From IMG/VR virus record IMGVR_UViG_3300021962_000028, positions 94,623 through 158,622 of that record: DNA of 64,000 nucleotides. One strand, 5' to 3'. The notes beneath the pieces were generated by a model that saw nothing but the letters and a program-made list of their open reading frames with translations, was not told the DNA's origin and searched no databases. Positions 3,579 to 63,325 of this stretch are shown piece after piece. The translations under genes were made by a program, and so were the position numbers. The stretch comes from a virus. Position 1 is the stretch's first letter. Every line of letters starts with the position of its first letter.

Positions 3579-4268
3579 TTACGATTGAGTATCCGAGTCA
3601 GCAGGAATCAAAGAAGATTTCATAGAATCTAATTGATTACCGAATTTTTCAGACATCTTATCCACTAATGGACAAACAATACCTGAAATCTTTTCTTTAA
3701 CTTTGTCACCAAAGTCACTACTTTTAATCACGTCATATAATGAATTTCTAACAAAGTCCATAAAATCACCGCCCATACCTTTTTCATACTCTAATTGTCT
3801 TAGGTATGCCTCAGGAATAGATTCTGATATTTTTTCTGTTAAAAACTCACAATCTGAAAATAATTTAGGGACATCTTTTAAATCCGTATTACCTAAAGCG
3901 GTAATTAAGAAATTTTTAAGGAAATTGTTATCTTCAATTCCTAATTTTTCTAATATCCATCTAACTCCTTTTTCTTTAAATAATTCAACCACTGCATTAG
4001 TACTTCCACCAAATAAGTTACCTAAAACGGTGAAAACACTTTCAGCATTTTCTTTAATTAAATTACTATCAAAACCTTGTTTATGTAAGTAAATCATCTC
4101 AGAAAGAAGATTCACAAAAGTATCATCTAATTGTTTTTTAGTTTTAATCTTAGAAGATTCTGCAATCATTAAGAATCTTGTTTGAATTATCTTAGATTCA
4201 CCTAACAATCGATTTTTACTTTCTTTAGTTTCGATTAACTGTTTTCTTATATTATTTTTAAGACTCAT
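3579..4268 (-). CDS. Hypothetical helical protein with leader (IRKQLIE)
   Basis: ORF track; last gene of the minus-strand cluster. Confidence 0.7.
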   Translation of the reverse strand: MSLKNNIRKQLIETKESKNRLLGESKIIQTRFLMIAESSKIKTKKQLDDTFVNLLSEMIYLHKQGFDSNLIKENAESVFTVLGNLFGGSTNAVVELFKEKGVRWILEKLGIEDNNFLKNFLITALGNTDLKDVPKLFSDCEFLTEKISESIPEAYLRQLEYEKGMGGDFMDFVRNSLYDVIKSSDFGDKVKEKISGIVCPLVDKMSEKFGNQLDSMKSSLIPADSDTQS

Positions 4269-4285
4269 ATCTTTATATTCTTTTT

Positions 4286-5902
4286 TTATTGTAATGGTGG
4301 TTGGTCCATAGACTTCATAGAAGCAAAAGATACTTTATATCTATCTTCTAATCCTTCATCAGACAACGCACTTATTTGATTTCTATCTGTAATGATTCGT
4401 TTTCTAGCACAGTTAGCAACAACTTGTTTCATCGCTTTTAATTCACCAATTTCAAACGCTTCACAACTTGTAACACTTTCCGCTTTCTTCTTAAACAATC
4501 CTGTTTCTTGGTATTGTATACAATCTAATAATTTAGAAATTGTAGTTTTACAGAATTCTGCAGTTAACGTATTCCCTGCCATATATGCCGAAAGATTTTT
4601 ATCGATATTTGTTGTCGCGGCAGTTGTCATATTCTGACCCTTTATCACATACGCAGTGAATGGAACCGTAAACGGAGCTTTATCGAACTTAACCTCAGTA
4701 TAATTCATAATGTCTTGTTGAGGTGGGTTTGTTAAAGGATTCCAATTTGATTGATTACTTGTTTTCGCTAATTCGTTGGTTGCGGTAGTTATTGCACTTT
4801 TAAGTTGTGTAAAATTATCATTAACAACTGTAACATATCTTTGGTATTTTTCACCCATAGATGTATAAAAATCAATTAAATTTTCTAAGAAAGTCGCGTA
4901 ATATCCGAAACCATTACTTCTATATTTTGAATTAATACCTGAAATAACCGCTTCAGTGGCTTGTGTCAACTCAACAGAATTTAATCTATAATTACCTAAA
5001 ATAATTTTAAGCCCTAAATAATCATTAGTCTCTTTTACCATATCATAAGTTTCTGATTGGTCAGGTGTTAAATTAGACGCTTGATTACCTCCCATACCTA
5101 CAGGACCTACCGTGTAAGACGCTCCGTTATTATCTGTAATTGTTAAACCATTATTACAATTGTATAATAGATTAACTTTACCATTATCACCTTTAACCCC
5201 AACAGGTCTTGATACCGCTAAGTAATTACCACCCTGTCTCGGAGTTTTGGTAAAATAGATATCAACTTCAACACCTTTATTATCTTTTCCAACGGTATGG
5301 AACATTCCATAACCCTCAATTCTTTCAAATGACGTTACACAATTAGGGAAACCTGTTGCCCAATCACCTCCAGATGTTTGTTGATTAGTATTTGTACCAC
5401 CATAAGTAACTCTAACATCGTTGTCTCCATTACACGACCAAGTACCTGATGAATTATCACTTGTTGTGAATTTACCATCTTTACTGAATGTATATGTAAC
5501 ACTGTTAGCATTAACCACCCATTGTTTTTGAGTGTTTAATGAACCGCTTTGATTGTTAATATTAAGAATACATTTTTGAAAACCTTCTGCAGTACCCGCC
5601 TCAATATTACTTCTATTGGTGACATTAGAATTGTTTTGATTTTGATTTTGGTTTTGATTTTGGTTCTGATTTTGGTTCTGATTTTGGTTTTGATTTTGGT
5701 TTTGATTTTGGTTTTGATTTTGGTTAGTATTTCCTCCTTGGTCAAAAGGATTTCCCCCTTGGTCAAAAGGATTCCCCCCTTGGTCAAAAGGATTTTGTTC
5801 TACTAATACTTTACGCATACCCTCTATGTTATTTGGATTTTCATTTTCAAATAACTTATTAATGATTGAGGTTACGTTTGTTTTTTTATTTTTGTATCGC
5901 AT
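4286..5902 (-). CDS. Hypothetical protein with NPFDQGG x3 and (NQ)n low-complexity tract
   Basis: ORF track; start moved to ATG 5902, which overlaps the upstream gene end. Confidence 0.7.
   Translation of the reverse strand: MRYKNKKTNVTSIINKLFENENPNNIEGMRKVLVEQNPFDQGGNPFDQGGNPFDQGGNTNQNQNQNQNQNQNQNQNQNQNQNQNQNQNQNNSNVTNRSNIEAGTAEGFQKCILNINNQSGSLNTQKQWVVNANSVTYTFSKDGKFTTSDNSSGTWSCNGDNDVRVTYGGTNTNQQTSGGDWATGFPNCVTSFERIEGYGMFHTVGKDNKGVEVDIYFTKTPRQGGNYLAVSRPVGVKGDNGKVNLLYNCNNGLTITDNNGASYTVGPVGMGGNQASNLTPDQSETYDMVKETNDYLGLKIILGNYRLNSVELTQATEAVISGINSKYRSNGFGYYATFLENLIDFYTSMGEKYQRYVTVVNDNFTQLKSAITTATNELAKTSNQSNWNPLTNPPQQDIMNYTEVKFDKAPFTVPFTAYVIKGQNMTTAATTNIDKNLSAYMAGNTLTAEFCKTTISKLLDCIQYQETGLFKKKAESVTSCEAFEIGELKAMKQVVANCARKRIITDRNQISALSDEGLEDRYKVSFASMKSMDQPPLQ
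5635..5795 (-). repeat. Coding tandem repeats: 21-bp unit x3 (NPFDQGG) and 6-bp AAYCAR unit, about 15 copies
   Basis: Visible ttttgg/ttttga hexamers and ccttggtcaaaaggat repeats. Confidence 0.9.
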
Positions 5903-7751
5903 AAGTCCCATCAGATTGTTTTTTAAATTTAAGTTCAATTTCAACTCCTTGACTATTTTTACCTTTAGCGATAATTAAAGTCTTATCTGACCCGTCAATT
6001 TCATATGATGTCATAACATTTTTATACGTTGGGTACTGTTGGTCAAACCACGTTTTAAATTCTTGTTTGTTTGCATCACCCGTTTGATTTTGGTTTTTAT
6101 TTTGGTTTGGGTCAGGAGGTGTGCTAGATACCGTAGACATTTTATGAGGTGTTAGACTCTCACTTCCAGCACCAATCGCGGCGTCACTAGGTTCAAATTT
6201 AAAAGTTGTATAAAGTTTACCATCAACCGAAATCCCTGGGTCTAACTGTATAGTACCTTCTTTAGCGGATAATACAGTAACCTTAGGTGTTTCGGTTCTT
6301 AAACCAGCGTTTGCCGATGCGTCTTTAGCACCGAAAATTGATGTTCCGTTAATTTTTGGGTCATCATATTTTAAAAATTCACCAACTTTTTCAGTTATTT
6401 GTTCGTTTGAAAGTGGGGTTAAATCATCAATATACCCTGTAAATTTTTCTACAGTTTGTCCACTCTTCTTCCACATCCATCCGATAGCTCCCGTAAATAA
6501 AACCGCACTATGTAGACAAACTACACCAAACGCTTTCCACCATTCCTTAGTTCCCATTTCACCAAGTTGAATCACTTTTACGTAATTTTTACTTAGACCC
6601 TCAAAGAAATTTCTTGTTTGACCACCTAATTTAGTAAGTGTTGTAGGAGCTTTAAATCCTTTACTTTCCAAATACTTTTCAAATGTGGGGAATTTTTGTT
6701 TTTCTCTAAAATTTGTATATTTTTTATCGTATTCAGCCCATTGAGTTAGTAAATTCGCGGTATCTTTAATACTTGGAGAATCTAAGGTAATTAATCTAAT
6801 TTGTTCTTGAGTGAAAGCCCCTTTTTCACTTAACTGTATAAACCAAGCTGCTTCCTCTTCACTAAGTTTTGTAAAATCTTTACCTTTTAATTTGTTAAAC
6901 CATTCATTCGCACTAACCTTTAACTCAGAAGCGTTCATATTTGATATTTTCTCAGCGATTAATTCACTTGTACTTAATTCTTCAACAGTCTCTTCAGCCT
7001 CTTTTTCTCCGTTTTCAATAACATCGTTAATAATTTCGTCATTAATTTCACCTTCAATTTCACCTTCAATTTCACCTTCAATACCTTGTTCTACCGATTT
7101 ACCAAAAGGAGTTCCTCCCGCTTCCTCAACATTTTTACTAATTTTTGCAATTGCATTATCTAAATCATCGGTTAATTCTTTCTTAACAACGTCTGATAAA
7201 TCTACTTGAGATTCTACAGATTTTCTTAATTTAGTTAAATCTTCTAAAGTTTCGTTGGCAAAACCAATATATTCCGAATCAACTTTAGTTCCGAAAGATT
7301 CCATACTCGCAGCAACTTCACCTCTAACTTTTGTAAATGCGTTTGAGTTACGTACTCCAGTATTTAATATTTTTTCAATGGCTCCTGAACCTCCTGATTG
7401 TTCCAATTCTTTAAGTGCTTGTTTAACAAACGCGTTTTTAATTGTCGCTACTTCAGCTCTTTCAATTCCTTTCTCACCAATTTTCGCCAAATCTTCTAAA
7501 GTTCTAATCCCTGCCGATTCAAGTTTTTTAGATATACCTGATTCAGTATCTTTACTTAACGCCTCAATCGCTCTTTCGCCTGCTTGGGTTAAGGAGGTTT
7601 TTTCGGCAGATTCAATACCTTTTTCAGTACCTAAAAATAGTTTTTCAAGGGCACTTTCTCCGTATTTCGATAATGGAGATTCGGTTAATAATTTAATACC
7701 CATCATTTCTCTTATTCGGGATACTTCAGTAAGTAACATATTATTTTTCAT
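5886..7751 (-). CDS. Large hypothetical protein with leader, acidic linker (EGEI x3) and one hydrophobic segment
   Basis: ORF track; LLTEVSRIREMMG leader; GTATTTATA upstream. Confidence 0.75.
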   Translation of the reverse strand: MKNNMLLTEVSRIREMMGIKLLTESPLSKYGESALEKLFLGTEKGIESAEKTSLTQAGERAIEALSKDTESGISKKLESAGIRTLEDLAKIGEKGIERAEVATIKNAFVKQALKELEQSGGSGAIEKILNTGVRNSNAFTKVRGEVAASMESFGTKVDSEYIGFANETLEDLTKLRKSVESQVDLSDVVKKELTDDLDNAIAKISKNVEEAGGTPFGKSVEQGIEGEIEGEIEGEINDEIINDVIENGEKEAEETVEELSTSELIAEKISNMNASELKVSANEWFNKLKGKDFTKLSEEEAAWFIQLSEKGAFTQEQIRLITLDSPSIKDTANLLTQWAEYDKKYTNFREKQKFPTFEKYLESKGFKAPTTLTKLGGQTRNFFEGLSKNYVKVIQLGEMGTKEWWKAFGVVCLHSAVLFTGAIGWMWKKSGQTVEKFTGYIDDLTPLSNEQITEKVGEFLKYDDPKINGTSIFGAKDASANAGLRTETPKVTVLSAKEGTIQLDPGISVDGKLYTTFKFEPSDAAIGAGSESLTPHKMSTVSSTPPDPNQNKNQNQTGDANKQEFKTWFDQQYPTYKNVMTSYEIDGSDKTLIIAKGKNSQGVEIELKFKKQSDGTYAIQK

Positions 7752-7822: not shown

Positions 7823-9499
7823 TTAGTCAAAAGGGTTCGTCTCTGAATTTTGAGTTACAGGTGGTATTACCTGACTTTTAGACTTAGCAATTGAATCCAT
7901 AGCTTGTTGTCTCCTAATTCTATTTTTTTCAAATTCGTCAGCACTATTTTCAATATTTTGTAATTGTACTGAATAATATTCTTCAGCCGCCAACTTACTC
8001 TGTTTTACATCGGTTGACGTTTCTTCCCCAATTTTCTGAGCCGCCTCATAATTTTGTTTAATATTATCTAAATAAGTAATAGCCTCTTCTTGAGTAGGTT
8101 TACTTTCAGCCTCTTGTTTAATCTTAGTAAGTTCCTCTTGAGGCATTTCCTTACCGTAAAGTTTTTTGTAGGCAATTTTTACTCCTTCAGCACCTAATAT
8201 AATAGGTGTATCTACAGTTACTACTGCTTTACCCATTTTAACACTACCTTCTTTAATCTTAATACCAAATTTAGAAGCCTTTTGTGCAAAAGTTTTACCG
8301 ACAGTTGGATTTGTTGCGGCTTTAGCTGCATTAACCTTGTAAACTTCTTGAATAACCGTTTTAAATCCGTCGGGTTTTGTTTTTGCGGCTTTAGCAACAG
8401 TTTCATATAATTCTTGTGCGGGTTTTGACATACCTTCAAAAATCAATGGATTTGTACCATCAAACTTTCCTAAAGTTTCGACTATTTCTTTACATTCCGC
8501 TTCACCATATTTAACGGTGTTACCCAACCAACCTCTAATACCTGGTGCGTTATGTATAAGTGGTAACGCGGCAAATACAAATGACACTGTTGGGTCTAAA
8601 CCTCTGTCCATTTCATATAACCCGATACCTACGTTGAATGCTGCCTGAGTTAAGAAATCTAAACCTATCGTCACTAACTTGGCATTATTCATCACACTTA
8701 AGGCGGATGTTATTTCGGCCGATGCCGCAGTTGCAACCGCAACTCCTTCAGCTACCGCAACTCCCTCCGCAACAAAATAAGCCCCTACAATAATATCCGC
8801 AATACCTGCAGTTGCAATACCAATTAAAATTGCCCCACCAATCTGAACAATCCAACCGTATTCATCCCACCATTTATCACCAGTACTTCTTAAGTCGTCA
8901 GATGTCGGGGGTGAATAAGATACTTCTTTACCTCCTTCGGTTTTATAGTACCAAGGTTGCATAATCCAACCTCTATCATCCCTATCATTTTCGTTTTTAT
9001 AATGAATAGTCGCCCAATCGTAATTTTCGTCTTTTAATTCGATTAAGAAATGATAATTTTCGCCATTTTCGTGAGTAACTGTTGGTCCTGTTTTAAAGGA
9101 TTTAGGCCAATTCATCGCTGCAATTTCTTGCCAATACTTATTCGTCGGGAAAAATACTTTAGTCCCGTCATTCATTAATTTATACCAACCATATTTTGGG
9201 TCTTCTTTTAAACCTGGAAATAAAGTACCTGATGTGTCTGTATCTTTAAACATATCCCATTTAGTACCTTCAACTACGTCAATTTCTTGACCATTTAAAT
9301 AAGGCATTTTAATAGTAGTTCTTCTAGTCAAATAAGAACCGTCAGTGGTACCTCCAGGATTTTCTATAACACCATAGTTAGGTGCTCCTAAAACTGATTC
9401 GAGTATATTGATTTTTTTAATATTCTCGGTTAAAGTATCACCTACAGAATATTTCATTAATAATTTAATCCTATCTAAAGATTGTTCTTTATCACTCAT
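7823..9499 (-). CDS. Large hypothetical protein with Gly/Ala-rich hydrophobic helices
   Basis: ORF track; WIVQIGGAILIGIATAGIADIIVGAYFV segment. Confidence 0.75.
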   Translation of the reverse strand: MSDKEQSLDRIKLLMKYSVGDTLTENIKKINILESVLGAPNYGVIENPGGTTDGSYLTRRTTIKMPYLNGQEIDVVEGTKWDMFKDTDTSGTLFPGLKEDPKYGWYKLMNDGTKVFFPTNKYWQEIAAMNWPKSFKTGPTVTHENGENYHFLIELKDENYDWATIHYKNENDRDDRGWIMQPWYYKTEGGKEVSYSPPTSDDLRSTGDKWWDEYGWIVQIGGAILIGIATAGIADIIVGAYFVAEGVAVAEGVAVATAASAEITSALSVMNNAKLVTIGLDFLTQAAFNVGIGLYEMDRGLDPTVSFVFAALPLIHNAPGIRGWLGNTVKYGEAECKEIVETLGKFDGTNPLIFEGMSKPAQELYETVAKAAKTKPDGFKTVIQEVYKVNAAKAATNPTVGKTFAQKASKFGIKIKEGSVKMGKAVVTVDTPIILGAEGVKIAYKKLYGKEMPQEELTKIKQEAESKPTQEEAITYLDNIKQNYEAAQKIGEETSTDVKQSKLAAEEYYSVQLQNIENSADEFEKNRIRRQQAMDSIAKSKSQVIPPVTQNSETNPFD

Positions 9500-9510: not shown

Positions 9511-9750
9511 TTACGTTAATTGATTTGCAGGACCATCTCTTTTAACCCTATCAGGTCTTTTCTCATTTGAAATCGGGTTTGCAGGACCTCTTGTTAGTTT
9601 AGAACCAACAATTCCTGACCAAGTTGTAACGTTACTTCCACCACCAGTTGACCCTCCAGCAGGAGCGTCTTCCTCCTCAATTTCGGTCTTATCATTTGAT
9701 GTGGTGTATTTTTCCATCAAACGTATTAAATAATCAACGTCTATCCTCAT
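9511..9750 (-). CDS. Small hypothetical protein with two GPAN motifs
   Basis: ORF track; ATATTTATA upstream. Confidence 0.65.
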   Translation of the reverse strand: MRIDVDYLIRLMEKYTTSNDKTEIEEEDAPAGGSTGGGSNVTTWSGIVGSKLTRGPANPISNEKRPDRVKRDGPANQLT

Positions 9751-11905: not shown

Positions 11906-12526
11906 ATGAAAGTATTAATAACAGAGAATCAATATCGAACAATTCTATTAGAATCGTCTAAAAACTCATTAAATAATGTTTTAGAGGATTTAAAAGAGTT
12001 TGCAACAATGGTTATTGAAAAAACTCAACAGGATGTTGGAGTTAACTTAAAGATGTTATTAATATGGGGTGCTGGTGTAGGTGGAGTAATGGCTCCGTTA
12101 AATGAATTCATTCAGAATGGTGACTTCAATTTAAATGATTTTCAAATCGCATCTATATTATGTGCAACTACGGCAATTCTTTATGGTGAAAGTAAAAGTG
12201 TTATAAACGAATTACTTAAAGTTATAAAAGACGAGGGGATTGTAGATGAATTCAACAGAGTTTTATCGAAAGGTACTAAATTAAAGAAAGTATTTCTTAA
12301 TTTCATTCAAAGTCTTAATATGACTTTATCAAGTGTAACTAACATTATGAGTTACGCATTTATTATCCCTATTTTACCTATATTATGGGATATGTCTCAA
12401 ACAGGTGTTACTAAACCAGAGGTTAAAGAAATTGTGATTAGATTAATGTCATTTGGGTTAACCGCAATTTCAGGGAACACATTAAGAGAACTAGTGACAA
12501 AATTAGTCAACCGATTTAGGGACTAA
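11906..12526 (+). CDS. Hypothetical protein with MKVLITENQY leader and hydrophobic segments
   Basis: Start moved to the ATG after ATATTTATT. Confidence 0.7.
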   Translation: MKVLITENQYRTILLESSKNSLNNVLEDLKEFATMVIEKTQQDVGVNLKMLLIWGAGVGGVMAPLNEFIQNGDFNLNDFQIASILCATTAILYGESKSVINELLKVIKDEGIVDEFNRVLSKGTKLKKVFLNFIQSLNMTLSSVTNIMSYAFIIPILPILWDMSQTGVTKPEVKEIVIRLMSFGLTAISGNTLRELVTKLVNRFRD

Positions 12527-26520: not shown

Positions 26521-27312
26521 TTACACCATACCCGTGGTTTGGTAATAGTTTTTAAGGTCACCAACTGTTAGGGGAGTTCCTTTTTCCTTACCTAAAACTC
26601 TATTAAACACAGGATTAGCATCCGCAACTGTTTTTGCCGATAAATCTCTACTTTTTAAAACAAAATCGTCCGATTTACCTGCTGCAATAGGGAAAAAATT
26701 ATATATGTATAAATCTTCAGGTTCTTTTATCTTACCATTCTCATAACCTTTAACCCAAAAGTCTTTAATTGCATCCATCTGAGCACTTAAATCATTTCTT
26801 AGGTCTTCTAAAGAGTATGATTTACCATTAATTGTTTTTGTACCTCCACCACTAGGACAAAATTGAATTAAACCAACACAACCAATACTATTTTTGATTT
26901 TAGGGTCTAATCCCGATTCGTGGTTCATTAACTTAATTATATATTTTTCATCAATATTAATTGCGTTGGATATTTCTTCTAACTTTTCTTGGAAAATCTT
27001 ATTATCAAGTAATTTTTGACCTTTTTCACTAATGTTATCCAATTCTAAATCTTTTAATTCTTTTTCTGAATCAGGACCTTTGAATAAATCTTTTAGTTTT
27101 TTAATAATACTAGTTTCCTCATCTTTTTTATCACCATCTAAGTCAATTGATTTAATTTTTTTAACTAAATCAGTGCCTTTCAAATAATCAACGGCTTTTG
27201 ACCCTAAGTCTTTAATATCATCAATTAAATCTTCATTAACTGAAGATTCTTGCAAATTAGATAGTTTTCTAAATCGATTTATCTCTTCTAATATTTTCTT
27301 ATTGTCATTCAT
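26521..27312 (-). CDS. Lysozyme-like / lytic transglycosylase domain protein with leader
   Basis: LMNHESGLDP...GLIQF; EEINRFRKL leader. Confidence 0.7.
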   Translation of the reverse strand: MNDNKKILEEINRFRKLSNLQESSVNEDLIDDIKDLGSKAVDYLKGTDLVKKIKSIDLDGDKKDEETSIIKKLKDLFKGPDSEKELKDLELDNISEKGQKLLDNKIFQEKLEEISNAINIDEKYIIKLMNHESGLDPKIKNSIGCVGLIQFCPSGGGTKTINGKSYSLEDLRNDLSAQMDAIKDFWVKGYENGKIKEPEDLYIYNFFPIAAGKSDDFVLKSRDLSAKTVADANPVFNRVLGKEKGTPLTVGDLKNYYQTTGMV

Positions 27313-28020: not shown

Positions 28021-28386
28021 ATGGACTTAGAAAGTATAATCAAACAAGTTTTACGTGAAGAATTTGGAACTAATAAATTCATTTATGAAGATGAATTTGG
28101 TTCAGTAGAACAAACAACAATAACTGAAGCTGAGTATAAAGGAAGAAAAGTTCAGTTAGGTAAAATAATGCAAGGTGACGTTAAGAAATTTAAAGTATAC
28201 GTTAAAAACGATAAAGGAAACGTTGTTAAAGTTAACTTTGGGTTTGGTGGTAAATCTGCCAAGGGTAAACGAATGGTCATCAAGAAAAATAACCCTGAAA
28301 GAAGAAAAAGTTTTAGAGCGAGAATGAGATGTGATAATCCAGGTCCTAGATGGAAACCACGTTATTGGGCGTGTAGAACTTGGTAA
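28021..28386 (+). CDS. Basic viral-type protein with leader
   Basis: IIKQVLREE...ITEAEY; KVNFG...RRKSFRARMRC...YWACRTW; start 28012 or 28021. Confidence 0.7.
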   Translation: MDLESIIKQVLREEFGTNKFIYEDEFGSVEQTTITEAEYKGRKVQLGKIMQGDVKKFKVYVKNDKGNVVKVNFGFGGKSAKGKRMVIKKNNPERRKSFRARMRCDNPGPRWKPRYWACRTW

Positions 28387-32025: not shown

Positions 32026-32070
32026 TTTAAATGATAAGTACATTATTTTAAAATGTCAAATCTTTTTTTG

Positions 32071-32144
32071 TGGTAGGGATTGGAATCGAACCAATGGCAC
32101 ACCGTTGTTCAAACGGATGCTCTGCCTTCTGAGCTACCTCTACC
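32071..32144 (-). tRNA. tRNA-Phe-like (anticodon GAA), atypical
   Basis: GGTAGAG acceptor, TAGCTCAG..GG..AGAGC D arm, loop TTGAACA, GGTTCGATTCC; C37, U27:U43 and A6:C67 mismatches. Confidence 0.75.
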
Positions 32145-38103: not shown

Positions 38104-38412
38104 TTAATCAAATCGATTAACATCAATATAGTATTTTATTGTTCTTCTTGCGATGTTAGTATCTAAATTTGGGAACTCGTCTTCAATCTCGTTGAAAATT
38201 CGACTAACTAAGTATTTTTTATTATCATCCAAATTTCTACCCTTATCGTCAATCATAATAGCCCTATGGACAAACGGTTTGTCCCCAAAGTTATATTCTG
38301 TTTTATGTATTGGGAAATGTCTTTTAAGATAGTTTAAAAGTCTTTTGTCGGTATTATCTGTATACTTACTGATAATGTCTTTTTTCTCCTCCTCTGTGAT
38401 AATAAGTCTCAT
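38104..38412 (-). CDS. Hypothetical protein with IITEEEK leader
   Basis: ORF track. Confidence 0.7.
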   Translation of the reverse strand: MRLIITEEEKKDIISKYTDNTDKRLLNYLKRHFPIHKTEYNFGDKPFVHRAIMIDDKGRNLDDNKKYLVSRIFNEIEDEFPNLDTNIARRTIKYYIDVNRFD

Positions 38413-38456: not shown

Positions 38457-38726
38457 ATGAAAAGAATGCTTGAACATCTTATTAATGTAATCCAAAGGGA
38501 AGACCTCGAACTAATGTTTGGTAAGGGGAGTAAGGTGGTTGTAGAATCTGTAACATATTCCACAAATACAAAAAAAATCGTAATCCATTCTAAAGTACTT
38601 GCAACTGATGTTGATGACTCAATAGACATTTTCCCAACAGGTTTAAATATGTTAGTAAACGAGGGTTGGAAATATATGGGATATAACGAAGAATTAACTT
38701 TAATAAACTCGTTAGACGTTCTTTAG
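38457..38726 (+). CDS. Hypothetical protein
   Basis: ORF track. Confidence 0.6.
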   Translation: MKRMLEHLINVIQREDLELMFGKGSKVVVESVTYSTNTKKIVIHSKVLATDVDDSIDIFPTGLNMLVNEGWKYMGYNEELTLINSLDVL

Positions 38727-40516
38727 AAACTCTTAGTATAGAATCCTGACCCCTCATTGTTAAACTTGTCTTGGAATCCTTCAGGTAGTTTAGGTTCTGA
38801 ACCTTTTAAATTAATAAACATTAAGTTTGGTAAATTTAATACTGATGACGGAATACTTTCTAAGTTAGGATTGTCAGGTAATGCTAAGAATGATAAATTA
38901 GATAATTGACCTACTTCTTCAGGAATACTACTTACACAATTCATTAATAATAGAGCTTCTAAATTTTTAAATCGACTAATACTTTTAGGTAATGCGAATG
39001 TAAAATTATCTTTTGATTTATTATTAAATAAGAAATTAGTAATATCTGATGGTAAACTCGCGAATAATTCATCAAATCCATATAACGCAACAAATTTAGA
39101 TGAGTTACCGCTAGGGTATTCAATTTCAACTTTAGTTCCGTTAACCGCCAAATCTTTACCAAATTTAGGTTTCATTTCTTCCTTAAGTTTTCTTAACATA
39201 GGTGTGTTAAGTAACGCAATGTCTTCAGTACTTAATTGATTAACATTAGTTTGTTTTAATTTTTCAATTTTCTTACCAATATAATATCTAATCACTTCAG
39301 GTTCTGAAGACCCAATCATACTTGTACTTAAACTCATACCTAAAGCAATGTATTTTTTCTTTAAATCAGGTGTTAAATGAGCATATTGTTCGTCAGAAAG
39401 TCTAGGACTGTTATATTCTAACCACATCTCAACCTCCTGAGGTGAGTTAAAAGACTTCATAGGGTTGTCACCAACTCTGGCGTTTCTAACCGTATTGATT
39501 AACTGTCTTTCTTCTTGTGTGAGAGGTTTTGGTTCAAAAATATACTCTAATCCTTCTAATTTTGGAACTTTTGACACAATTTCACTAAATGGTATATTTG
39601 TACTACCACCATATCTACCTGAGTTAGATTTATCAGCCATAGACATTCTACCATTTGGGTCCACAAGGATTACCGTGGCGAAGTTTAAATCATCGAATGG
39701 TTTGTCCTCATCGATTACGTAATAAAGTGTTCTCTCGTGACCTAATCTGTAGTTATAATACATATTTCCACTACCTTCACGACTTGTACACCAACCTCGA
39801 CCGTTTCTTAATCTAATACATTGGTCTTTAGTTAGTGGTGCGAAAATTTTTAATCCATTTTCATCATATTTTAAATCAATGTTTCCAAAATCTTCTTTTT
39901 CTTTATCGGAAGCACTTTTCTTTCCTTGTAAACCATCTAAAAGGTGTTCTAATTCACTAAAAGACATCTTGTCAATACCTTTAGTATCAAAAGGAATTAA
40001 GTCGAAATTTTCCCCATAAGAATCAATATAATAAAGTATTTGGTCTTGAGTTAAATTAGGATTTTCTTTAGAAAACTTATTAATCATTTTCTTAGTTAAT
40101 AGTCTTGGATATAAATCGTCAACCATTTTAACTAAATTTAAAAAACTATACTTTAAAATGTTTTGTTTTTCTTTTGGTAATTCAGATTGAATTTCTAAAA
40201 ACTTTTTGATATATCTCTTAAGGTTATTATTTTCAATACCCTTTTCTTTTTTCTTAAATTCAGTAAAGATATCATCCATACTTCTCGCAGATTGTTTGGA
40301 CTGAATTAAAGATTTTAAATCATTATAAGAATATCTCATAATATCTCTCTTCTCAGCAGGCAAACCTTGTTTGTATCTGTCAAATAAATCGATATTAGAA
40401 ATTATTTCTTCACGGCTATCTGTAGTGTCAGCACTAAATTTGGAGTATAACTGATTTTTAACTTTTTCAGAAACCTCCAGTATAATATTTTTACTTAATA
40501 AGTTTAATAATTTCAT
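38723..40516 (-). CDS. Protein with helical repeats, WCT domain and C-terminal leucine-rich repeats
   Basis: LPKSISRFKNLEALLL, IPEEVGQLSNLSFLAL, IPSSVLNLPNLMFINL. Confidence 0.75.
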   Translation of the reverse strand: MKLLNLLSKNIILEVSEKVKNQLYSKFSADTTDSREEIISNIDLFDRYKQGLPAEKRDIMRYSYNDLKSLIQSKQSARSMDDIFTEFKKKEKGIENNNLKRYIKKFLEIQSELPKEKQNILKYSFLNLVKMVDDLYPRLLTKKMINKFSKENPNLTQDQILYYIDSYGENFDLIPFDTKGIDKMSFSELEHLLDGLQGKKSASDKEKEDFGNIDLKYDENGLKIFAPLTKDQCIRLRNGRGWCTSREGSGNMYYNYRLGHERTLYYVIDEDKPFDDLNFATVILVDPNGRMSMADKSNSGRYGGSTNIPFSEIVSKVPKLEGLEYIFEPKPLTQEERQLINTVRNARVGDNPMKSFNSPQEVEMWLEYNSPRLSDEQYAHLTPDLKKKYIALGMSLSTSMIGSSEPEVIRYYIGKKIEKLKQTNVNQLSTEDIALLNTPMLRKLKEEMKPKFGKDLAVNGTKVEIEYPSGNSSKFVALYGFDELFASLPSDITNFLFNNKSKDNFTFALPKSISRFKNLEALLLMNCVSSIPEEVGQLSNLSFLALPDNPNLESIPSSVLNLPNLMFINLKGSEPKLPEGFQDKFNNEGSGFYTKSF

Positions 40517-40872: not shown

Positions 40873-41472
40873 TTACGGTTTTTTAGAAGTCACCATATCT
40901 TCAATTGACAACGCAATACCTTTACCGTATTCATTCCTTCTTGAAGGTTTCTCTTTAATAAAATAATCGTAACCTGTAATTACTTCTCCGTCTTTAAGTG
41001 GATGCCCGTCACCTTTAGTGTCTAACATACCTTTGATAGGTAAATCCCCACTTACTCTTAATTTTCCTTTAGTTGGTATTCCTTCATCATTAACAAAAAA
41101 TATCCAATTACCTTTCGCTCTTTCCATTGAAGGTGTGATTAATCTAGCCACATTATTTCCATTAAGACCTTCATCATTATTTTTAAAGTTTGCATTACTT
41201 TCATTATAACTTACACCTAGTTCATCCAAAGTAGGTAATTGTTTACCAGTATCGACAACTCTTCCTATTGAACCATCTTTTTTGTATTCTTTCATCCAAA
41301 CATCAAAACTATCTCCGTTAGAAATAAAATATAACTCTTCGGCAACTGTAGGTTCATTAACACCATCGTTCCTTCTGAAAATATAATCAAACGTTGGTAG
41401 GGCGTTTTCTGAAATAACCTTTCTAACAATCCTAACTAAGTCAGATTCTGTTAACTTTATAACTTTTTTCAT
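40873..41472 (-). CDS. Hypothetical protein with MKKVIKLTESDL leader
   Basis: Start moved to ATG 41472. Confidence 0.7.
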   Translation of the reverse strand: MKKVIKLTESDLVRIVRKVISENALPTFDYIFRRNDGVNEPTVAEELYFISNGDSFDVWMKEYKKDGSIGRVVDTGKQLPTLDELGVSYNESNANFKNNDEGLNGNNVARLITPSMERAKGNWIFFVNDEGIPTKGKLRVSGDLPIKGMLDTKGDGHPLKDGEVITGYDYFIKEKPSRRNEYGKGIALSIEDMVTSKKP

Positions 41473-41987: not shown

Positions 41988-42377
41988 TTATTTTTCTTTT
42001 CCTGTTGAACAATCAACTTCCCAATTGGCTTGTTTCTGTCCATTATACTCTAAAATAGACCAACATCTACCTGTCATTGGGATATCAGCCCCTAAACAAG
42101 TACCAATACTATCACTTTCTCCATTATTAAATACATCTTTACCAACTCTAGGTTCTTTAATAAAGGTAATTACAGGTTTACCGTCTTCAGATACAATATC
42201 GGTTAAAGTGTAACTTTCAGGGTCGATAAGAGCTTCCCCACCTTCACATCTTTGGTAATAAATGTCACCTAAAGAGTCCTCAACAGTTTTTTGTTGTGGT
42301 TGTTCTGAAATTACTACACCTCTTTTGTAACCAAGAAGGTATTTCATCTCGTGTATTTCGTTAATGACTGACCTCAT
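41988..42377 (-). CDS. Hypothetical protein with INEIHEMK leader
   Basis: Start moved to ATG 42377. Confidence 0.65.
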   Translation of the reverse strand: MRSVINEIHEMKYLLGYKRGVVISEQPQQKTVEDSLGDIYYQRCEGGEALIDPESYTLTDIVSEDGKPVITFIKEPRVGKDVFNNGESDSIGTCLGADIPMTGRCWSILEYNGQKQANWEVDCSTGKEK

Positions 42378-42378: not shown

Positions 42379-42657
42379 TTATGATAATTTATAAAGTTCT
42401 TTATCTCCAACTCTACAAAGTTTAGGACATCCATTTTCCATAACCATCATAACAACTCTACCATCAGTATTAAATATTTTACCACCAATAGTTTTCGCTA
42501 ATTCAAATTCTGAACAGTTTGGTTGTGATGTTTGTTTTACGCATTTTTCAGAATCAGTACCTGTAGGTGCCGCAGGTGCCGCAGGTTGTTCTAATATTAC
42601 ACTTTTGATTAACTGAGTTAATTCTCTCTCGTTAAGTCTTACTATTCTTTTTGCCAT
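42379..42657 (-). CDS. Small Cys-containing protein with RLNERELTQLIKSVILE leader
   Basis: ORF track. Confidence 0.7.
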   Translation of the reverse strand: MAKRIVRLNERELTQLIKSVILEQPAAPAAPTGTDSEKCVKQTSQPNCSEFELAKTIGGKIFNTDGRVVMMVMENGCPKLCRVGDKELYKLS

Positions 42658-42956: not shown

Positions 42957-43337
42957 CTAATCCTGTTCTTTTGTAACTGATTTAATGGGTATTTTTACAG
43001 GATAAACACTATTAAACCATTCTTTTAATAACGGCTCAAAATAATCACCAAACATTATGATAATGTTTCTAAAGTCCCATTCGGAGTATCTTAATATCGG
43101 AAGTTCAAGGTCTTCACCAGCGTCCCCTCTGTCGTATTGTACTTGTAATATCCAAGAGTCATCTTCCCATCCATCTTCAATATCCTCATAATAATTAAAG
43201 ACATCTAAATCAACATACCTATTTTTTTCGTGAACCCAAAAATCATAACTTCTTTCACCCTCATCTAAATTAGAATAATTCCCCATTACCGTAGTAAAGA
43301 CTTTAAGTAATTGTTCGTTTGTAACTTTATAATCCAT
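42957..43337 (-). CDS. WF-family paralog
   Basis: C-terminal LLKEWFNSVY. Confidence 0.65.
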   Translation of the reverse strand: MDYKVTNEQLLKVFTTVMGNYSNLDEGERSYDFWVHEKNRYVDLDVFNYYEDIEDGWEDDSWILQVQYDRGDAGEDLELPILRYSEWDFRNIIIMFGDYFEPLLKEWFNSVYPVKIPIKSVTKEQD

Positions 43338-43338: not shown

Positions 43339-44184
43339 TTAATTGTCTACTCTAACGATTTCAGGACTGTATCCTAAATCTCTCACTAATTCACGTGCTT
43401 TATCGGTAACCTCACGTTGTGTGGAATATCCACAACTACTTTGGAATACTAATTTAAGTTTAATATTAAAATTGTTACGTTCGTACCTGATTGAGTGTAT
43501 CCGAGAACCTCCTGGTATTTGTTTAATCTCCTTTTTAATCACTTTATTAAGAACTTTTTTAATCCATTCTTCCTCACCTATCATATTTGGACTACTACTA
43601 AATCTAAAATCTAATAATCCGTGAGATGGATTACCGTAAGACACTCCTAAAAAGTGTTCAAAATTATCTCTTAACGTACTACTAATTTTATTAATTGCTC
43701 GATACTCTTCAGTAGTTATATTTGAGTTAACAAATTTATTAAAATCGACATCAACACTACCGTACACCATATAAGGTCTTTCTTCCTCAAATTTAATAGT
43801 AACAAAATCAGGCAAATCTAAATTTTTAACTAAAATTTGTATCCCTTTCTTATATTTTTCAGTAAATTTATCTTTTTTAGCTAAAGATGGTAGTTTATGT
43901 AGACCTTTTTCAACCATTTCTTTACCCGCTGAAGCCATTTTAGCTGCAGGTCCACCGTATGACCTCGCATAAAGGTCAAATTCTTTACAAAATTCTTCAA
44001 AATAAGTCCTAACAATTAGTGACATAGGGTATCCACCGATGTCATCACCGTGTTTTTCTTTAACCCAAGGTCTAAACTTATGAATAAAAACCTCAATAAA
44101 GTCCTCATCGGAGTAATCGTTGAGGTGAATTTCGGTTATAACCTGTTTAACCACACTGTTTATGTCAAAATTGTTGTAATTCAT
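43339..44184 (-). CDS. Hypothetical protein
   Basis: ORF track; VKQVITE leader. Confidence 0.7.
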   Translation of the reverse strand: MNYNNFDINSVVKQVITEIHLNDYSDEDFIEVFIHKFRPWVKEKHGDDIGGYPMSLIVRTYFEEFCKEFDLYARSYGGPAAKMASAGKEMVEKGLHKLPSLAKKDKFTEKYKKGIQILVKNLDLPDFVTIKFEEERPYMVYGSVDVDFNKFVNSNITTEEYRAINKISSTLRDNFEHFLGVSYGNPSHGLLDFRFSSSPNMIGEEEWIKKVLNKVIKKEIKQIPGGSRIHSIRYERNNFNIKLKLVFQSSCGYSTQREVTDKARELVRDLGYSPEIVRVDN

Positions 44185-45007: not shown

Positions 45008-45475
45008 TTAACAAATCGGCATTTGTTTTATCTTCACCTTACCAAATATATCTGAAATAATGACATTTAACAACCCTCCATTCGGTTTTGTTCTAATATA
45101 TTCATATAATTTATCCACCATTTCTTTTGGAACGGTAACATTTGGACCAATCATCTTCAATAACAGTCCCATACCACCTGTTTTTTGTTGTTCCCAATTA
45201 TCGTGAACATATTTGATTGCTTCTCCCTCAGGCATTTTACTATCGGCACTAATCTTCACCAATAAATCATCAATTTGACCATAAATCGGTTTTAAATATC
45301 CGTCCACGTTACCACAAATTTTATTAACAGGGGTATTTTCCAATATGTCCCCCATAGAATTAACCATATTACTGATAATATCTTTATAATTGAACAAATT
45401 AAACCCTGTTTTCTCTTGTTCGTGTAGTCTCAAAATTGATTTCTTTTCCTCCTCGGTGATTATAAATTTTCCCAT
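45008..45475 (-). CDS. Hypothetical protein with MGKFIITEEEK leader
   Basis: ORF track. Confidence 0.7.
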   Translation of the reverse strand: MGKFIITEEEKKSILRLHEQEKTGFNLFNYKDIISNMVNSMGDILENTPVNKICGNVDGYLKPIYGQIDDLLVKISADSKMPEGEAIKYVHDNWEQQKTGGMGLLLKMIGPNVTVPKEMVDKLYEYIRTKPNGGLLNVIISDIFGKVKIKQMPIC

Positions 45476-45865: not shown

Positions 45866-46975
45866 TTATCTTAAATTTGTTAATGGTGGGTTCTTAAAGA
45901 TTGCGAAGTGATTATTTTCCACTCTATAGTTTTTATTATCAAATATCAATAATCCTTTAGGACCCGCAAAGATGAGGTATTGTACTGGTTTACTCTTATA
46001 GTTTTTCATTTGATAGGAGTTCACAACATACTCTTTGGTATTCTCATCAACCTTATACCAACTAAGTGGTTTAACCTGAGCATAACTCTCACCACTTTCA
46101 GTAGTAATTTCAAGGTCCTTACCGTCATATCTATCTTGTTTTGAACCCGAACAGAATTGTTTAATGTTCTTTGGGTCAATATTATACGGAGACTCAGTTA
46201 ATTTCTTAATTGCCAAGTTTTCAGTTTTGGTTCCCGAGTCATATGATTTAAGATTAATCTCAACAAGTTCTTCCATATACTTACCTCCCTTGAACAATCC
46301 TTCCGCATTATCATAAATCCATTGTTGGAAACTTTTAATACTAACTCCATCAGGGGTTTCCATATTATTAAACACTCCACGCATATACCATTCAATAAGT
46401 TTTTTGATAACCATTGGATTGGTGTCAAAATAATTAAGGATTGACCAAGCTTGACCTGGTATGTTTGTGTTTGGAATATCAATTAATCCGTCTTCACTAT
46501 TACAAATACCTTCACTATCGGTAAACCTATTTTTTCCAATATTACTTGGATATAATTTGTACAACGTGTCCAACATAAACTTAGGAAATCCTGAACTTGA
46601 TTTTTTCAAGAAATTCTCATCCAATTTAATATCGTGAGTTTCTAAAGTTTTCTTAATCTTGTCATACTCATCACTCAAAATATAAGGGGCTCCCGTAGAT
46701 TTTGTAAAATTAATTTTATCTACAGTGAAGTCAAACGCCTCCTTAGTTAAAACATTACTAAGTTTAACGGTAGAATTCGAATTGGCGTCTTTCATCTCCT
46801 TAATCTTCTCCGCATCTTCCTTAGACATTCCGTTTATATAAACAAATGATTTTTGATTTTTCGTATCAGGATTAAAGTTAGTAAAACGTACGACAATCTC
46901 ATTCGGAAATTCAATCTCCGTCTGTTGTTCAATAATTAAATTTTTATACTGACTCTCAGTTATTACTATCTTCAT
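45866..46975 (-). CDS. Leader protein with putative C-terminal PD-(D/E)XK nuclease-like domain
   Basis: MKIVITESQY; GTKTE...DRYDGKDL...AQVK. Confidence 0.5.
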   Translation of the reverse strand: MKIVITESQYKNLIIEQQTEIEFPNEIVVRFTNFNPDTKNQKSFVYINGMSKEDAEKIKEMKDANSNSTVKLSNVLTKEAFDFTVDKINFTKSTGAPYILSDEYDKIKKTLETHDIKLDENFLKKSSSGFPKFMLDTLYKLYPSNIGKNRFTDSEGICNSEDGLIDIPNTNIPGQAWSILNYFDTNPMVIKKLIEWYMRGVFNNMETPDGVSIKSFQQWIYDNAEGLFKGGKYMEELVEINLKSYDSGTKTENLAIKKLTESPYNIDPKNIKQFCSGSKQDRYDGKDLEITTESGESYAQVKPLSWYKVDENTKEYVVNSYQMKNYKSKPVQYLIFAGPKGLLIFDNKNYRVENNHFAIFKNPPLTNLR

Positions 46976-58487: not shown

Positions 58488-59402
58488 ATGAATTTTGTAA
58501 TTAACGAATCTCAATTATTCTTATTGTTGGACAGTGTCTTCCCTGACTTGTCTGTTAAGAAAATACGTTCACGAAATTCTGCCCATACTTACATTATCGA
58601 ATCTAATGATGATGAGATGTTTCACTATGAGAATGGTACTCTTAATGTTAACCCTGACTTTGTTAAAATGTTAAATAGGTTTGCACCTATCAAAATAACT
58701 GACGATATTATATCCACTCTTGGTAAATGGATTCATAAGAAGGCGGGGTTAAAACCTAGAACTATTTGGATTGGTCTTAAATCATACGATGTTAGTAATA
58801 GTATGAATGAATCGTTTGATAAATTACGTGCAAGAAGATTTATGCACATTGCTAACGATTATTTTGAATCGTTGTCACCATCAGATGTTTGTAACTATTG
58901 GAAATCTGAGGAAGTTGAGGATTACGTTAATGAAACTATGTCTGAAATGGTTCGTTTCATTACTGATGAATATCCTGATGTTTCTGCTGAGGATTGGCAC
59001 GACACCTATGATGGTATCTATGGGATGTTGGAAGGTGTTGGTTATTCTAATAAGGTAAGAGATTTCTTTTACGACTCTTTAGATAACTGTAATCTAAATG
59101 AATCTGAGGAAAAAAGAATTAAGAGATTTGACAGAAGTCTTGTAAAAGATTACGGTAAGTACGGTAAAAAAATTGAGTCTTTAGCTCGTACATACTTAGA
59201 TGATATGGGAAAATCTATCTGTGATTTAGTTTGTTTATGTTCAGAGGTTAACGGTAAAGAAAATTATATTGTATTAATTATCTCATCACACTACTTATCA
59301 TCAAATTTTGAAACAAAGCTAACTAATTATATCACTAACTTTATTCCCGTAGATGTTTGGGTTATGGTAAATGTTAATCACCACTGTAATAGTTTGGATT
59401 AG
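58488..59402 (+). CDS. Apparent three-module fusion with internal xNES junctions
   Basis: MNFVINESQ; internal SMNES and NLNES. Confidence 0.65.
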   Translation: MNFVINESQLFLLLDSVFPDLSVKKIRSRNSAHTYIIESNDDEMFHYENGTLNVNPDFVKMLNRFAPIKITDDIISTLGKWIHKKAGLKPRTIWIGLKSYDVSNSMNESFDKLRARRFMHIANDYFESLSPSDVCNYWKSEEVEDYVNETMSEMVRFITDEYPDVSAEDWHDTYDGIYGMLEGVGYSNKVRDFFYDSLDNCNLNESEEKRIKRFDRSLVKDYGKYGKKIESLARTYLDDMGKSICDLVCLCSEVNGKENYIVLIISSHYLSSNFETKLTNYITNFIPVDVWVMVNVNHHCNSLD

Positions 59403-61500: not shown

Positions 61501-61851
61501 ATGAAGTACCTCATCACAGAATCCAAAATGGATAGTGTTATTGTTAATTACTTAACACATTATATTCACCCTGACTATAATTGGGGTCCTGAGTTGCACG
61601 ATTTCTATCAGGAAGATGTTAAGAAATATGGAATGTATGATTTCCTTATTAATGATGATGTCGCCTACACTTATCACGGTTATCAAGGTTATGCTGGTAG
61701 TGATGAAGTTGAAGAGATTGGTATTTTATATATTCAAAAATGGTTAGTTGATAAACTAACAACCTTATTTGGTAATTTTTGGATACCTATTTTTGAGAAA
61801 TGGTTTGAGGAAAACTCAGGTCTTAAAGTTAAAAAAATGATTGCAGAATAA
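61501..61851 (+). CDS. WF-family paralog
   Basis: MKYLITESKM; FEKWFEENSGLKV. Confidence 0.7.
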   Translation: MKYLITESKMDSVIVNYLTHYIHPDYNWGPELHDFYQEDVKKYGMYDFLINDDVAYTYHGYQGYAGSDEVEEIGILYIQKWLVDKLTTLFGNFWIPIFEKWFEENSGLKVKKMIAE

Positions 61852-61855
61852 TACT

Positions 61856-62344
61856 ATGAAAGGATTAATTAAAAAAGTACTAAAAGAATCTACGGAAGAA
61901 TTACTTAGATACCGTAAATTGTTCAGTGATTTTGAAATACCTGAAGAAGGTCTTAAAGGTAATGAAAATGGAGCAACTAATGTTGATGATTTCTTTTGGA
62001 ATTTTGTTGATATGGCGAACTATAAATCGGATAATGATTATAGAAGAATTAGTGACATATTAAAAGATTTAAATAAGTTTGCAGGTGTACCTGCTGAAAA
62101 GATACTTATTCTCGCTAAAGTACTTAATTTCAAAACAAAAGCCATCGATAAAAAATGGGGTGACGACATTTATAATGTTGGTGATGATAGTTGGTCAGAC
62201 CTTAGATGTGATGTAGTATCTCGTGGAAAAGAATTCTATAATAAATCTTTGGTCGATTATGATTTAGTCCAACGTATGGCAAATGAAGACGACTATAAAG
62301 AATCTTTTTCCTACGCAATACCTTATACCAGTGATTTAATTTAA
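61856..62344 (+). CDS. DUF4240-like protein with leader
   Basis: FFWNFVD...DDSWSDLRCDVVSRGKEFY. Confidence 0.55.
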   Translation: MKGLIKKVLKESTEELLRYRKLFSDFEIPEEGLKGNENGATNVDDFFWNFVDMANYKSDNDYRRISDILKDLNKFAGVPAEKILILAKVLNFKTKAIDKKWGDDIYNVGDDSWSDLRCDVVSRGKEFYNKSLVDYDLVQRMANEDDYKESFSYAIPYTSDLI

Positions 62345-62348
62345 TTAT

Positions 62349-63029
62349 ATGAAAAATAACTTACTAACCGAAATTAATAGATTTAAAACCCTTTCAAATA
62401 TTAATGAACCACAAAACATTAATGAACAAGAGTTATTGAATAATATTAAAAACCTAATCTCTATCGCATCTGACAATGTAAAAGATAATGAAACGTATAA
62501 AGACTTAATGTCTTTCTTTAAGTCAGTAACTTCTGATGAATCATCCGATGATGAAGTAATATCAGGTAGTTATAGTGCTGAAGGACAAAAGAACGCATAT
62601 GACGCATTACACTCATTCCAATCTCGAGTGTCAGATAAGTTTGGAGGTAAAATCAATACAAAGGTGAAGGAAGGTATTGAACGGTATAAAGATTTAAATG
62701 ATGTTGAATCAGTAGATATTAAAAAGGTTGAGATTGGCATCGACCCTGATACTTTAACTGTAGATTGGGAAGTAACTATAGGTCCAAGTAATGATGGTTA
62801 TACATACGAAGAATTTGATAGTAGAGGAAGTGCTGGCGGTGGTGAATCTGCGGTTGATGGTCAATTAAATCGTATGCACTCACTTCATTCAGGAACACCT
62901 AAATTAGTATATCATTATAATGAAACAATACCCGTATGTTTCAATTCAGACGGAACTAAAAAAACTAATGGTTGTAGTGGTAAAATTAACATACAACAAA
63001 AGTTCTTTAAATACGGTAAGAAAATATGA
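62349..63029 (+). CDS. Hypothetical protein with LLTEINRFK leader
   Basis: ORF track. Confidence 0.7.
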   Translation: MKNNLLTEINRFKTLSNINEPQNINEQELLNNIKNLISIASDNVKDNETYKDLMSFFKSVTSDESSDDEVISGSYSAEGQKNAYDALHSFQSRVSDKFGGKINTKVKEGIERYKDLNDVESVDIKKVEIGIDPDTLTVDWEVTIGPSNDGYTYEEFDSRGSAGGGESAVDGQLNRMHSLHSGTPKLVYHYNETIPVCFNSDGTKKTNGCSGKINIQQKFFKYGKKI

Positions 63030-63325
63030 AATACGTTATAACCGAAAATCAATATAAGTTAATCAGAAGAGAATCTGATATGGAACGTAGGATTGATAGA
63101 TTACTTATGATGGCGAAACTTCAAAATGATTTATATTTTGTACCTTTAGACCATCTAATCTTACATATCGCAGATAATGTCGCAGTCGAGATGGCAAACG
63201 AATCTAATGTTGAGGGTGATGACTATATCACATTTAGAAATCAAATAAAACAATATATTCGTAGTAATTTTTACGGACATATTAAAGACTTTTTGGAGAA
63301 AAATAAAGAGAAATATGTCAGCTAA
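63026..63325 (+). CDS. Hypothetical protein with MKYVITENQY leader
   Basis: ORF track. Confidence 0.7.
   Translation: MKYVITENQYKLIRRESDMERRIDRLLMMAKLQNDLYFVPLDHLILHIADNVAVEMANESNVEGDDYITFRNQIKQYIRSNFYGHIKDFLEKNKEKYVS

Follow-up and report, generated by a model that had tools for sequence, protein, structure and literature searches.

The 64,000-nucleotide stretch of viral DNA analysed here, the window, forms the final 64 kb of the 158,622-bp IMG/VR record IMGVR_UViG_3300021962_000028 and encodes a series of proteins that open with short N-terminal tags ending in glutamate. An original prediction made from the sequence alone had put the number of these leader-bearing proteins at about 35, and 33-34 tagged genes can be counted in the window when degenerate members are included, with three further tagged genes upstream of it in the record. 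With moderate confidence, we read the tags as an enlarged version of the T4-style capsid-targeting propeptide, which would direct a protein into the phage head and then be removed by a protease ("load, then clip"). We give about an even chance to the wider proposal that a clade of Bacteroidota jumbo phages (~260-320 kb) loads dozens of fast-evolving proteins per genome through a code of protease-released tags, placed at N-termini and at polyprotein junctions, with cargo from thousands of families that include polyphosphate kinase 2 (PPK2) and wall hydrolases.

Each of the 27 genes that had been listed by position encodes a product that opens with the motif assigned to it (27/27), the minus-strand positions being a mixture of gene low ends and true starts (46975, 50217, 41472 and 42377). 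The leaders had been divided into four classes, A to D; motifs of all four are present, but the classes are variants of one hydrophobic-hydrophobic-T/N-E design. With a slash marking the predicted cut, the consensus is Y/I at P5, I/L/V at P4, I/L at P3, T/N at P2, E at P1 and S/N/E at P1'; of 56 tags, 55 have I or L at P3 and all have E at P1, and the tags are 7-25 residues long. Some tags end in G-L-I-N-E/S or F-V-I-N-E/S, and in many of them the first Glu is followed by an amphipathic helix, which closes with another [ILV]-x-E 8-15 residues on. The 201 open reading frames (ORFs) of at least 60 amino acids (aa) in the entire 159-kb record contain the class A core [ILV][ILV][TSN]E[ENSDQRK] 19 times within the first 25 residues and 20 times across the remainder of the proteins. 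An even spread would place 4.2 in the first 25 residues (binomial p = 3e-9), and shuffled proteins have 1.4 +/- 1.2 there (maximum 6 in 500 shuffles). In the same set, the class B and C motifs are N-terminal in 8 of 8 occurrences, and seven proteins start with MKY[ILV]ITE.

The association of the leaders with one promoter type, also proposed at the outset, holds in all three of its parts. TATTTAT lies at most 45 nucleotides upstream of 18 of the 29 tagged genes defined by regular expressions, compared with 35 of the 172 other genes (odds ratio 6.4, p = 1e-5). Each of the 11 tagged genes that lack a TATTTAT of their own has, upstream of it and on its strand, a gene with the motif, and TAnnTTTG precedes none of the 29 tagged genes and 16 of the 172 others. 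Since TATTTAT also stands upstream of the sheath, tube, scaffold, gp21 and fibre genes, it is predicted to be a late-type promoter of the phage.

The record encodes a gp23-family capsid protein and a gp21-family prohead protease of the Peptidase_S77 family (Table 1), together with a T4-type portal and large terminase, in a head module upstream of the window. A scaffold protein of 506 aa is encoded at genome 58884-60404. In T4, the mature chain of gp23 has 456 residues and its precursor 521, which places the cut after Glu65 (E65/A66). In an alignment of the capsid proteins of T4, Flavobacterium phage immuto and the present phage, the T4 sequence F-L-T-E/A aligns with F-L-I-N-E60/A61 here and with I-V-S-E/A in immuto, the Glu and Ala being invariant, and the capsid protein of a complete relative (G001) reads Y-L-I-N-E/A. 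The predicted capsid cut site, L-I-N-E/A, is of the same shape as the ends of the tags. Peptidase_S77 is present in 11 of 11 complete (>=90%) IMG/VR genomes with MKYIITE or class B tags (5/5 and 6/6), and among the tag-bearing IMG/VR genomes examined it is absent only from fragments. Immuto (MW353176) itself has a Peptidase_S77 gene and three related N-terminal tags (L130:24977-25402, L130:25470-25865 and L132:11631-12095), of which one (on immuto35A_41) reads MIKLIDLLTES.. and two (on immuto35A_42 and immuto35A_187) read MKKQILSEQF.RMQ.LAGIITES... Separately, short ORFs that are 28-34% identical to capsid residues 429-572 occur in G001 (a minus-strand frame opening at 26182) and at L057, L029 and L041; they may represent pieces of a gp24-like vertex protein, or domains that derive from the capsid protein.

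CheckV estimates the completeness of the record at 53%, and its G+C content is ~32%. Complete tag-bearing relatives have genomes of 257-322 kb, so that the record amounts to roughly half of one such genome; in a complete relative of 309 kb there are ~30 tagged genes. A 12-kb megablast query had zero matches among 50,697 cultured-phage records, and the closest cultured relatives of the capsid protein, in immuto and Microcystis phage Mel-JY01, are ~42% identical to it. The TAnnTTTG promoters, which are of host type, point to a Bacteroidota host.

The domains behind the tags had been described as unrelated. This is correct for PPK2, the SLT and GYF_2 proteins and the proteins with no recognised domain, which differ from one another, but nine window genes form one family of small proteins (~100-130 residues) with a C-terminal domain in common: those at 52411, 53853, 54170, 55570, 56199, 56609, 58488 and 61501, and a leaderless one at 53440. 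In an AlphaFold2 (AF2) model of the protein at 61501, the mean predicted local distance difference test score (pLDDT) is 77; residues 1-5 are unstructured (pLDDT <50), and a helix spans residues 6-21, starting at Thr6. Foldseek found no match to this model in the PDB at E <= 0.001, and the ESM Atlas held no usable match for the family. A profile of the family built without the first 22 residues, and searched against the record, one complete relative and the IMG/VR loci, retrieved ~150 distinct members, the majority of which open with MKY[ILV]I[TS]E. Because it uses the C-terminal domain, this search is unbiased with respect to the tag, whereas in another alignment (A2) 44 of 50 rows were chosen by the MKYIITE pattern, so that the near-invariance of the tag there is partly by construction. 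About 15 leaderless paralogues begin 0-2 residues from the predicted cut, in an open frame with no hidden leader.

Similar boundaries appear outside the small family. In an alignment of orthologues of the class B protein at 32370-33383, variability peaks at residues 23-29, immediately after the tag; its AF2 model, built with 13 close orthologues, has a mean pLDDT of 46 and is usable for the helix at residues 9-21 only. Back-translated MKYIITE was found at more than 119 loci in IMG/VR, frequently in tandem arrays, and 131 non-redundant MKYIITE proteins from that database fall into 57 BLAST clusters; they include putative Zn-ribbon proteins and two pterin-4a-carbinolamine dehydratase-like proteins, identified by eye only. 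When a class B profile covering the first 32 residues was scored against 1.84 billion representatives, 8,068 clusters matched at E <= 0.001. In the best 150 of these 8,068, the match mostly runs from residue 1, and similarity ends right behind ..V-I-x-E-Q/N. A homologue search with only the first 40 residues returned chiefly orthologues among 30 candidates. Taken together, the AF2 model, the leaderless paralogues, the spread over clusters and the class B profile say that the tags are separable modules.

The class B tag also occurs inside proteins. In 31 of the best 150 matches there is a second, internal copy that keeps the basic-hydrophobic prefix, and the tag is present two or three times in each of three proteins (P0014, P0016 and P0018). 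Because whole tags occur at internal positions, class B can be neither a start-codon feature nor an N-degron, and its distribution fits a peptide that would be recognised at any position. A further candidate, a protein of 2,130 aa with 13 weak class B stretches (P0023), contains no tag by regular expression and was treated as a coiled-coil false positive. Judging from codon usage, the tags are selected at the protein level: in 133 distinct MKYIITE genes, the codons for Lys, Ile4, Thr and Glu vary as they do in gene bodies, and conservation of the tags as DNA or RNA was dismissed on that ground. In the same genes (loci L010-L128, n=133), Tyr3 is encoded by TAC in 55%, compared with 18% in gene bodies, and Ile5 by ATA in 62%, compared with 33%; this bias may reflect avoidance of promoter-like TATTTAT.

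The tagged genes themselves turn over rapidly. Seven of the 29 tagged genes have a homologue in G001, compared with 85 of the 172 other genes (p = 0.015), and the tagged homologues are at lower identity. PHROGs, applied to ten tagged proteins, gave PPK2 as the sole useful match, and Pfam PPK2 covers residues 115-338 of that protein (54489-55565; E 2.4e-71). The closest relatives of the tagged PPK2 (~90% identical) are 550-600 residues long and carry a wall-hydrolase domain behind PPK2, which is swapped among Phage_lysozyme PF00959, Hydrolase_2 PF07486 and Phage_lysozyme2 PF18013 in three of them (P0174, P0179 and P0205). The join reads ..P-N-I-N-E/Q-S and is followed by a class D-like helix, which identifies it as a tag at a fusion junction; the present phage has a stop codon where these relatives have the N-I-N-E/Q junction. 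A wall hydrolase can act at the onset of infection only if it travels in the particle, and the occurrence of these domains and of the SLT transglycosylase among the tagged proteins fits delivery by the virion.

In the mechanism that we propose, late genes with TATTTAT would yield proteins headed by one of a few interchangeable tags: MKYIITE/S (7 residues), ..IIKKVL.E/, ..LTE/..RI..MMG(L/I).E/S, or a 22-residue amphipathic-helix tag lying between two cut sites, MKKIIKLTE/SDLRRIV.RVI.E/Q. During prohead assembly the tag would bind the scaffolding core, so that the protein becomes enclosed. A gp21-type protease would then cut behind the Glu of hydrophobic-x-Glu motifs, and the same protease would trim the capsid protein at L-I-N-E60/A61, degrade the scaffold and free the cargo, which would remain with the DNA and enter the host upon infection. 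A T4-type head-loading tag was what the original prediction had suggested, and every computable feature fits it; scaffold binding, packaging, cleavage and ejection or injection are the steps that we infer.

Several observations weigh against such a mechanism. Tagged proteins are not basic (median isoelectric point 6.0, compared with 5.5 for other genes, p = 0.66), and several members of the small family are strongly acidic. The predicted ~30-50 cargo species per genome are far above the number in T4. Between the tags and the T4 tag MKTYQEFIAE, only the M-K start and the I-x-E end are shared, with no sequence homology, so the tags are either analogous to the T4 sequence or diverged from it beyond recognition. 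I/L-x-E is frequent in this Ile/Lys/Glu-rich proteome (626 sites), and N-termini are just 1.7-fold denser in it. Certain small-family paralogues lack the Glu or the entire tag. The small-family helix directly behind the tag belongs to the fold (pLDDT ~90), from which the likeness of classes A and B could partly be that of a generic helix start (a T-E-S-Q/D capping box). The co-occurrence of tag and protease lies within one clade and does not amount to a set of independent observations. Finally, tblastn with two tagged proteins found no relative among the 50,697 cultured-phage records, and we found no virion proteome of immuto in the literature that names this phage.

Four other explanations were considered. 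The tags might be uncut helices that serve for docking or oligomerisation in a different late assembly, such as the tail, baseplate, fibres or a cytoplasmic factory, and not bound for the capsid. Classes B to D are indeed amphipathic helices, the helix behind the small-family tag packs on the domain in the AF2 model, late expression would suit any virion or late function, and elsewhere in the record some tagged genes are interspersed with genes for the tail and fibres. However, the 7-residue MKYIITE is non-helical in the model and dispensable for the fold, all tags end in the motif that aligns with the capsid cut site, and conservation halts exactly behind the Glu, which leaves this explanation unlikely. 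We regard it as quite improbable that there is no tag system at all, and that the conserved first helix of one expanded superfamily coincides with [ILV]-x-E motifs that an Ile/Glu-rich proteome contains by chance. That nine window genes are one family, that I/L-x-E is so frequent and that T-E-S-Q/D with hydrophobic residues on either side is a standard way to begin a helix all speak for common ancestry. It is difficult to reconcile with the same tags on PPK2, SLT, GYF, Zn-ribbon and pterin-dehydratase-like proteins (the PPK2 and SLT regions behind the tags evidently differ in fold), with 57 clusters for MKYIITE and 8,068 for class B, or with leaderless paralogues and the recurrence of tags at internal junctions.

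It is very unlikely, in our view, that the tags are signals for another phage enzyme, whether a degron for ClpP and a Clp ATPase, a chaperone handle or the leader of a modifying maturase. The record does encode ClpP (window 2820-3494, plus strand; Pfam E 2.7e-58), and the N-terminus of a 674-aa ORF (genome 72974-74998, plus strand) resembles a Clp-type AAA+ ATPase, by eye only. ClpP occurs in four of five complete relatives but is absent from the complete tag-bearing genome G002, which excludes a strict dependence of the tags on ClpP, and whole tags at internal junctions are ill-suited to an N-degron. A radical-SAM maturase was likewise dismissed, as Radical_SAM PF04055 is absent from the record and four near-complete relatives while all control genomes were matched, and no maturase-like domain was found in ten neighbouring genes. 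Conservation of the nucleic acid, as a translation-start enhancer or a mobile recombination cassette of late promoter and first codons, is extremely improbable, for despite very A+T-rich first codons behind a shared promoter, three adjacent genes that are nearly identical over their first 20 bases and the bias at Tyr3 and Ile5, the other tag codons vary as in gene bodies, whole tags lie within proteins far from any start, and tag variants conserve residue class rather than bases.

The tagged genes of the window are collected in Table 1 with the two head genes.

Table 1. Tagged genes of the window and the genes for the capsid protein and prohead protease. Coordinates are those of the window unless marked as genome coordinates (genome coordinate minus 94,622 = window coordinate); slashes mark predicted cuts.
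Coordinates	Strand	Product	Tag	Remarks
genome 57041-58852		gp23-family capsid protein		Pfam Gp23 PF07068, E 1.6e-74
genome 60821-61549	-	gp21-family prohead protease, Peptidase_S77		PF03420, E 1.4e-22, 80.6 bits (cut-off 27)
3579-4268	-	229 aa	weak class C-like start ..RKQLIE/T	marginal; missed by the regular expressions
5886-7751	-	621 aa	class D + A, ..MLLTE/VSRIREMMGIKLLTE/S	TATTTAT upstream; no Pfam domain
7823-9499	-	558 aa	class D-like, ending ..DTLTE/N	operon behind TATTTAT of gene 9511-9750
11906-12526	+	206 aa	class A, MKVLITE/NQYRTILLE/S	TATTTAT upstream
26521-27312	-	263 aa, SLT lytic transglycosylase domain	class D, ..ILEEINRFRKLSNLQE/S	Pfam SLT E 1.1e-5, above curated cut-off
28021-28386	+	121 aa	class C, ..IIKQVLRE/E	
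32370-33383	-	337 aa	class B, MKKIIKLTE/SDLRRIVTRVIKE/H	
36665-37522	-	285 aa, GYF_2 domain	class A, ..LALVITE/N	
37525-38073	-	182 aa	class C, ..IIRKVLLE/A	
38104-38412	-	102 aa	class A, MRLIITE/EEKK	
40873-41472	-	199 aa	class B, MKKVIKLTE/SDLVRIVRKVISE/N	
41988-42377	-	~129 aa (start = internal Met)	MRSVINE/IHEMKYLLGYKRGVVISE/Q	tag type also in G001
42379-42657	-	92 aa	class B-like, MAKRIVRLNE/RELTQLIKSVILE/Q	
42957-43337	-	126 aa	degenerate class A start MDYKVTNEQ	weakly similar to 61501, BLASTP E 5e-4
43339-44184	-	281 aa	class C, ..SVVKQVITE/I	
45008-45475	-	155 aa	class A, MGKFIITE/EEKKSILRLHE/Q	
45866-46975	-	369 aa	class A, MKIVITE/SQYKNLIIE/Q	no Pfam/PHROG match
49468-50217	-	249 aa	class A, MGKFIITE/EDKKHIRGLYE/S	
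52411-52776	+	121 aa, small family	MKYLITE/S	
53853-54164, 54170-54472	+	two small-family genes	degenerate, MEYIITKA, MDYIIPQE	no in-register Glu
54489-55565	+	358 aa, polyphosphate kinase 2	class D, MRNLVTE/VSKMKKIMGLDE/A	~110-aa N-terminal extension
55570-55872	+	100 aa, small family	degenerate start MRYQVSHTQ	
55874-56197, 56199-56609, 56609-56938	+	three abutting genes	each MKYIITE/S	
56940-57263	+		class D, MKLQE/NIHRIQTMMGLINE/S	
57272-58045	+		class D, MNLHE/NIQRIKDMMISE/E	
58047-58487	+	146 aa	MKYVITE/S	
58488-59402	+	304 aa, N-terminal part small-family	MNFVINE/S	
61501-61851	+	116 aa, small family	MKYLITE/S	AF2-modelled
61856-62344	+	162 aa	class C, MKGLIKKVLKE/S	
62349-63029	+	226 aa	class D, ..NLLTE/INRFKTLSNINE/P	
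63026-63325	+	99 aa	MKYVITE/NQYKLIRRE/S	

Other features of the window include two tRNA-Leu genes with anticodons taa and tag (2421-2507 and 2721-2801, plus strand) and a tRNA-Phe gene (32070-32144, minus strand), and several of the ORFs listed at tRNA positions are probably no genes. A gene of the IMP dehydrogenase / GMP reductase type (29574-30599, minus strand; PF00478, E 3.3e-39) lies within the late region. Amid the tagged genes, a 597-aa protein (38723-40516, minus strand) has a weak C-terminal match to leucine-rich repeats, PF23598, below the cut-off.

If the tags act as proposed, they would mark a very large and unexplored set of injected effectors, and the proteins injected along with the DNA by a large group of environmental jumbo phages could be recognised by a simple sequence rule. 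The tagged proteins would then be the likeliest to disarm host defences or to seize the cell in the first minutes of infection. One tag class alone is found on at least 8,000 protein clusters, almost none of which has a known function. The tags would also offer short, self-removing handles for loading foreign proteins into the heads of Bacteroidota phages, a use to which the T4 tag has been put in E. coli. The tag-and-clip principle is familiar from work on T4 that dates back to the 1990s; new here would be how large the system is, its division into several tag classes and its use of tags to join the parts of fusion proteins, and our literature search found no paper describing such a multi-class tag system.

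Among known systems, encapsulin cargo-loading peptides are likewise short, portable addresses that send unrelated enzymes inside an HK97-fold shell. They differ in that they bind the shell protein, generally lie at the C-terminus, undergo no proteolytic removal and serve a compartment without DNA. The Dar anti-restriction proteins of phage P1 are several unrelated proteins that are loaded during capsid assembly and delivered with the DNA. P1 is not T4-like, however, and its loading proceeds via ordered partner proteins, with no single shared clip-off tag.

In the jumbo phages phiKZ, 201phi2-1 and SPN3US (proteases gp175 / gp245), a large number of proteins inside the head undergo cleavage behind the Glu of a short motif, as is proposed here. 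Their propeptides have several redundant cut sites each, and the diverged SPN3US paralogues gp53 and gp54 have retained identical N-terminal propeptides. The original prediction had drawn a parallel with phiKZ gp175, and cleavage after Glu would be common to both, but the protease here scores as Peptidase_S77, which makes T4 gp21 the closer comparison. In addition, the phiKZ-type motif is S/A/G-x-E and its propeptides are mostly longer than 100 residues, whereas the tags here have Ile/Leu at P3 and 7-25 residues. Phages of the phiKZ type also possess virion RNA polymerases and an inner body, while the head module here (Pfam Gp23, Peptidase_S77) is nearer to that of T4.

T4 propeptides of 10-19 residues direct proteins to the scaffolding core, after which gp21 cleaves the propeptides off, and the internal proteins of T-even phages have nothing but this tag in common. 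An Asp in place of the Glu at the T4 cut site prevents processing, whereas targeting persists. In the T4 genome record (NC_000866), the tag MKTYQEFIAE/A heads both IPII and IPIII, and further gp21 substrates read ..LLRE/S (gp24) and ..FLTE/A (gp23). The T4 capsid-targeting sequences (those of IPI, IPII and IPIII, and the gp24 and Alt propeptides) resemble the tags described here in being short and N-terminal, with an M-K start and a hydrophobic-x-Glu end, at 10-19 residues compared with 7-25. In both systems the tag stands on otherwise unrelated, fast-evolving proteins, and the protease is of the Peptidase_S77 family and the capsid protein of the gp23 family with an aligned cut site; late expression, as in T4, is predicted here from the TATTTAT motif that the tagged genes share with structural genes. 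The hypervariable internal-protein loci of T-even phages also match the turnover of cargo seen here. T4, however, has one tag class and a handful of cargo proteins, compared with several classes and 30-50 predicted cargo genes per genome, and its internal proteins are basic, whereas the cargo here is non-basic, with enzymes (PPK2, SLT) and a large family of acidic paralogues among it. Unlike those of T4, the tags of these phages double as internal junctions in multi-domain proteins.

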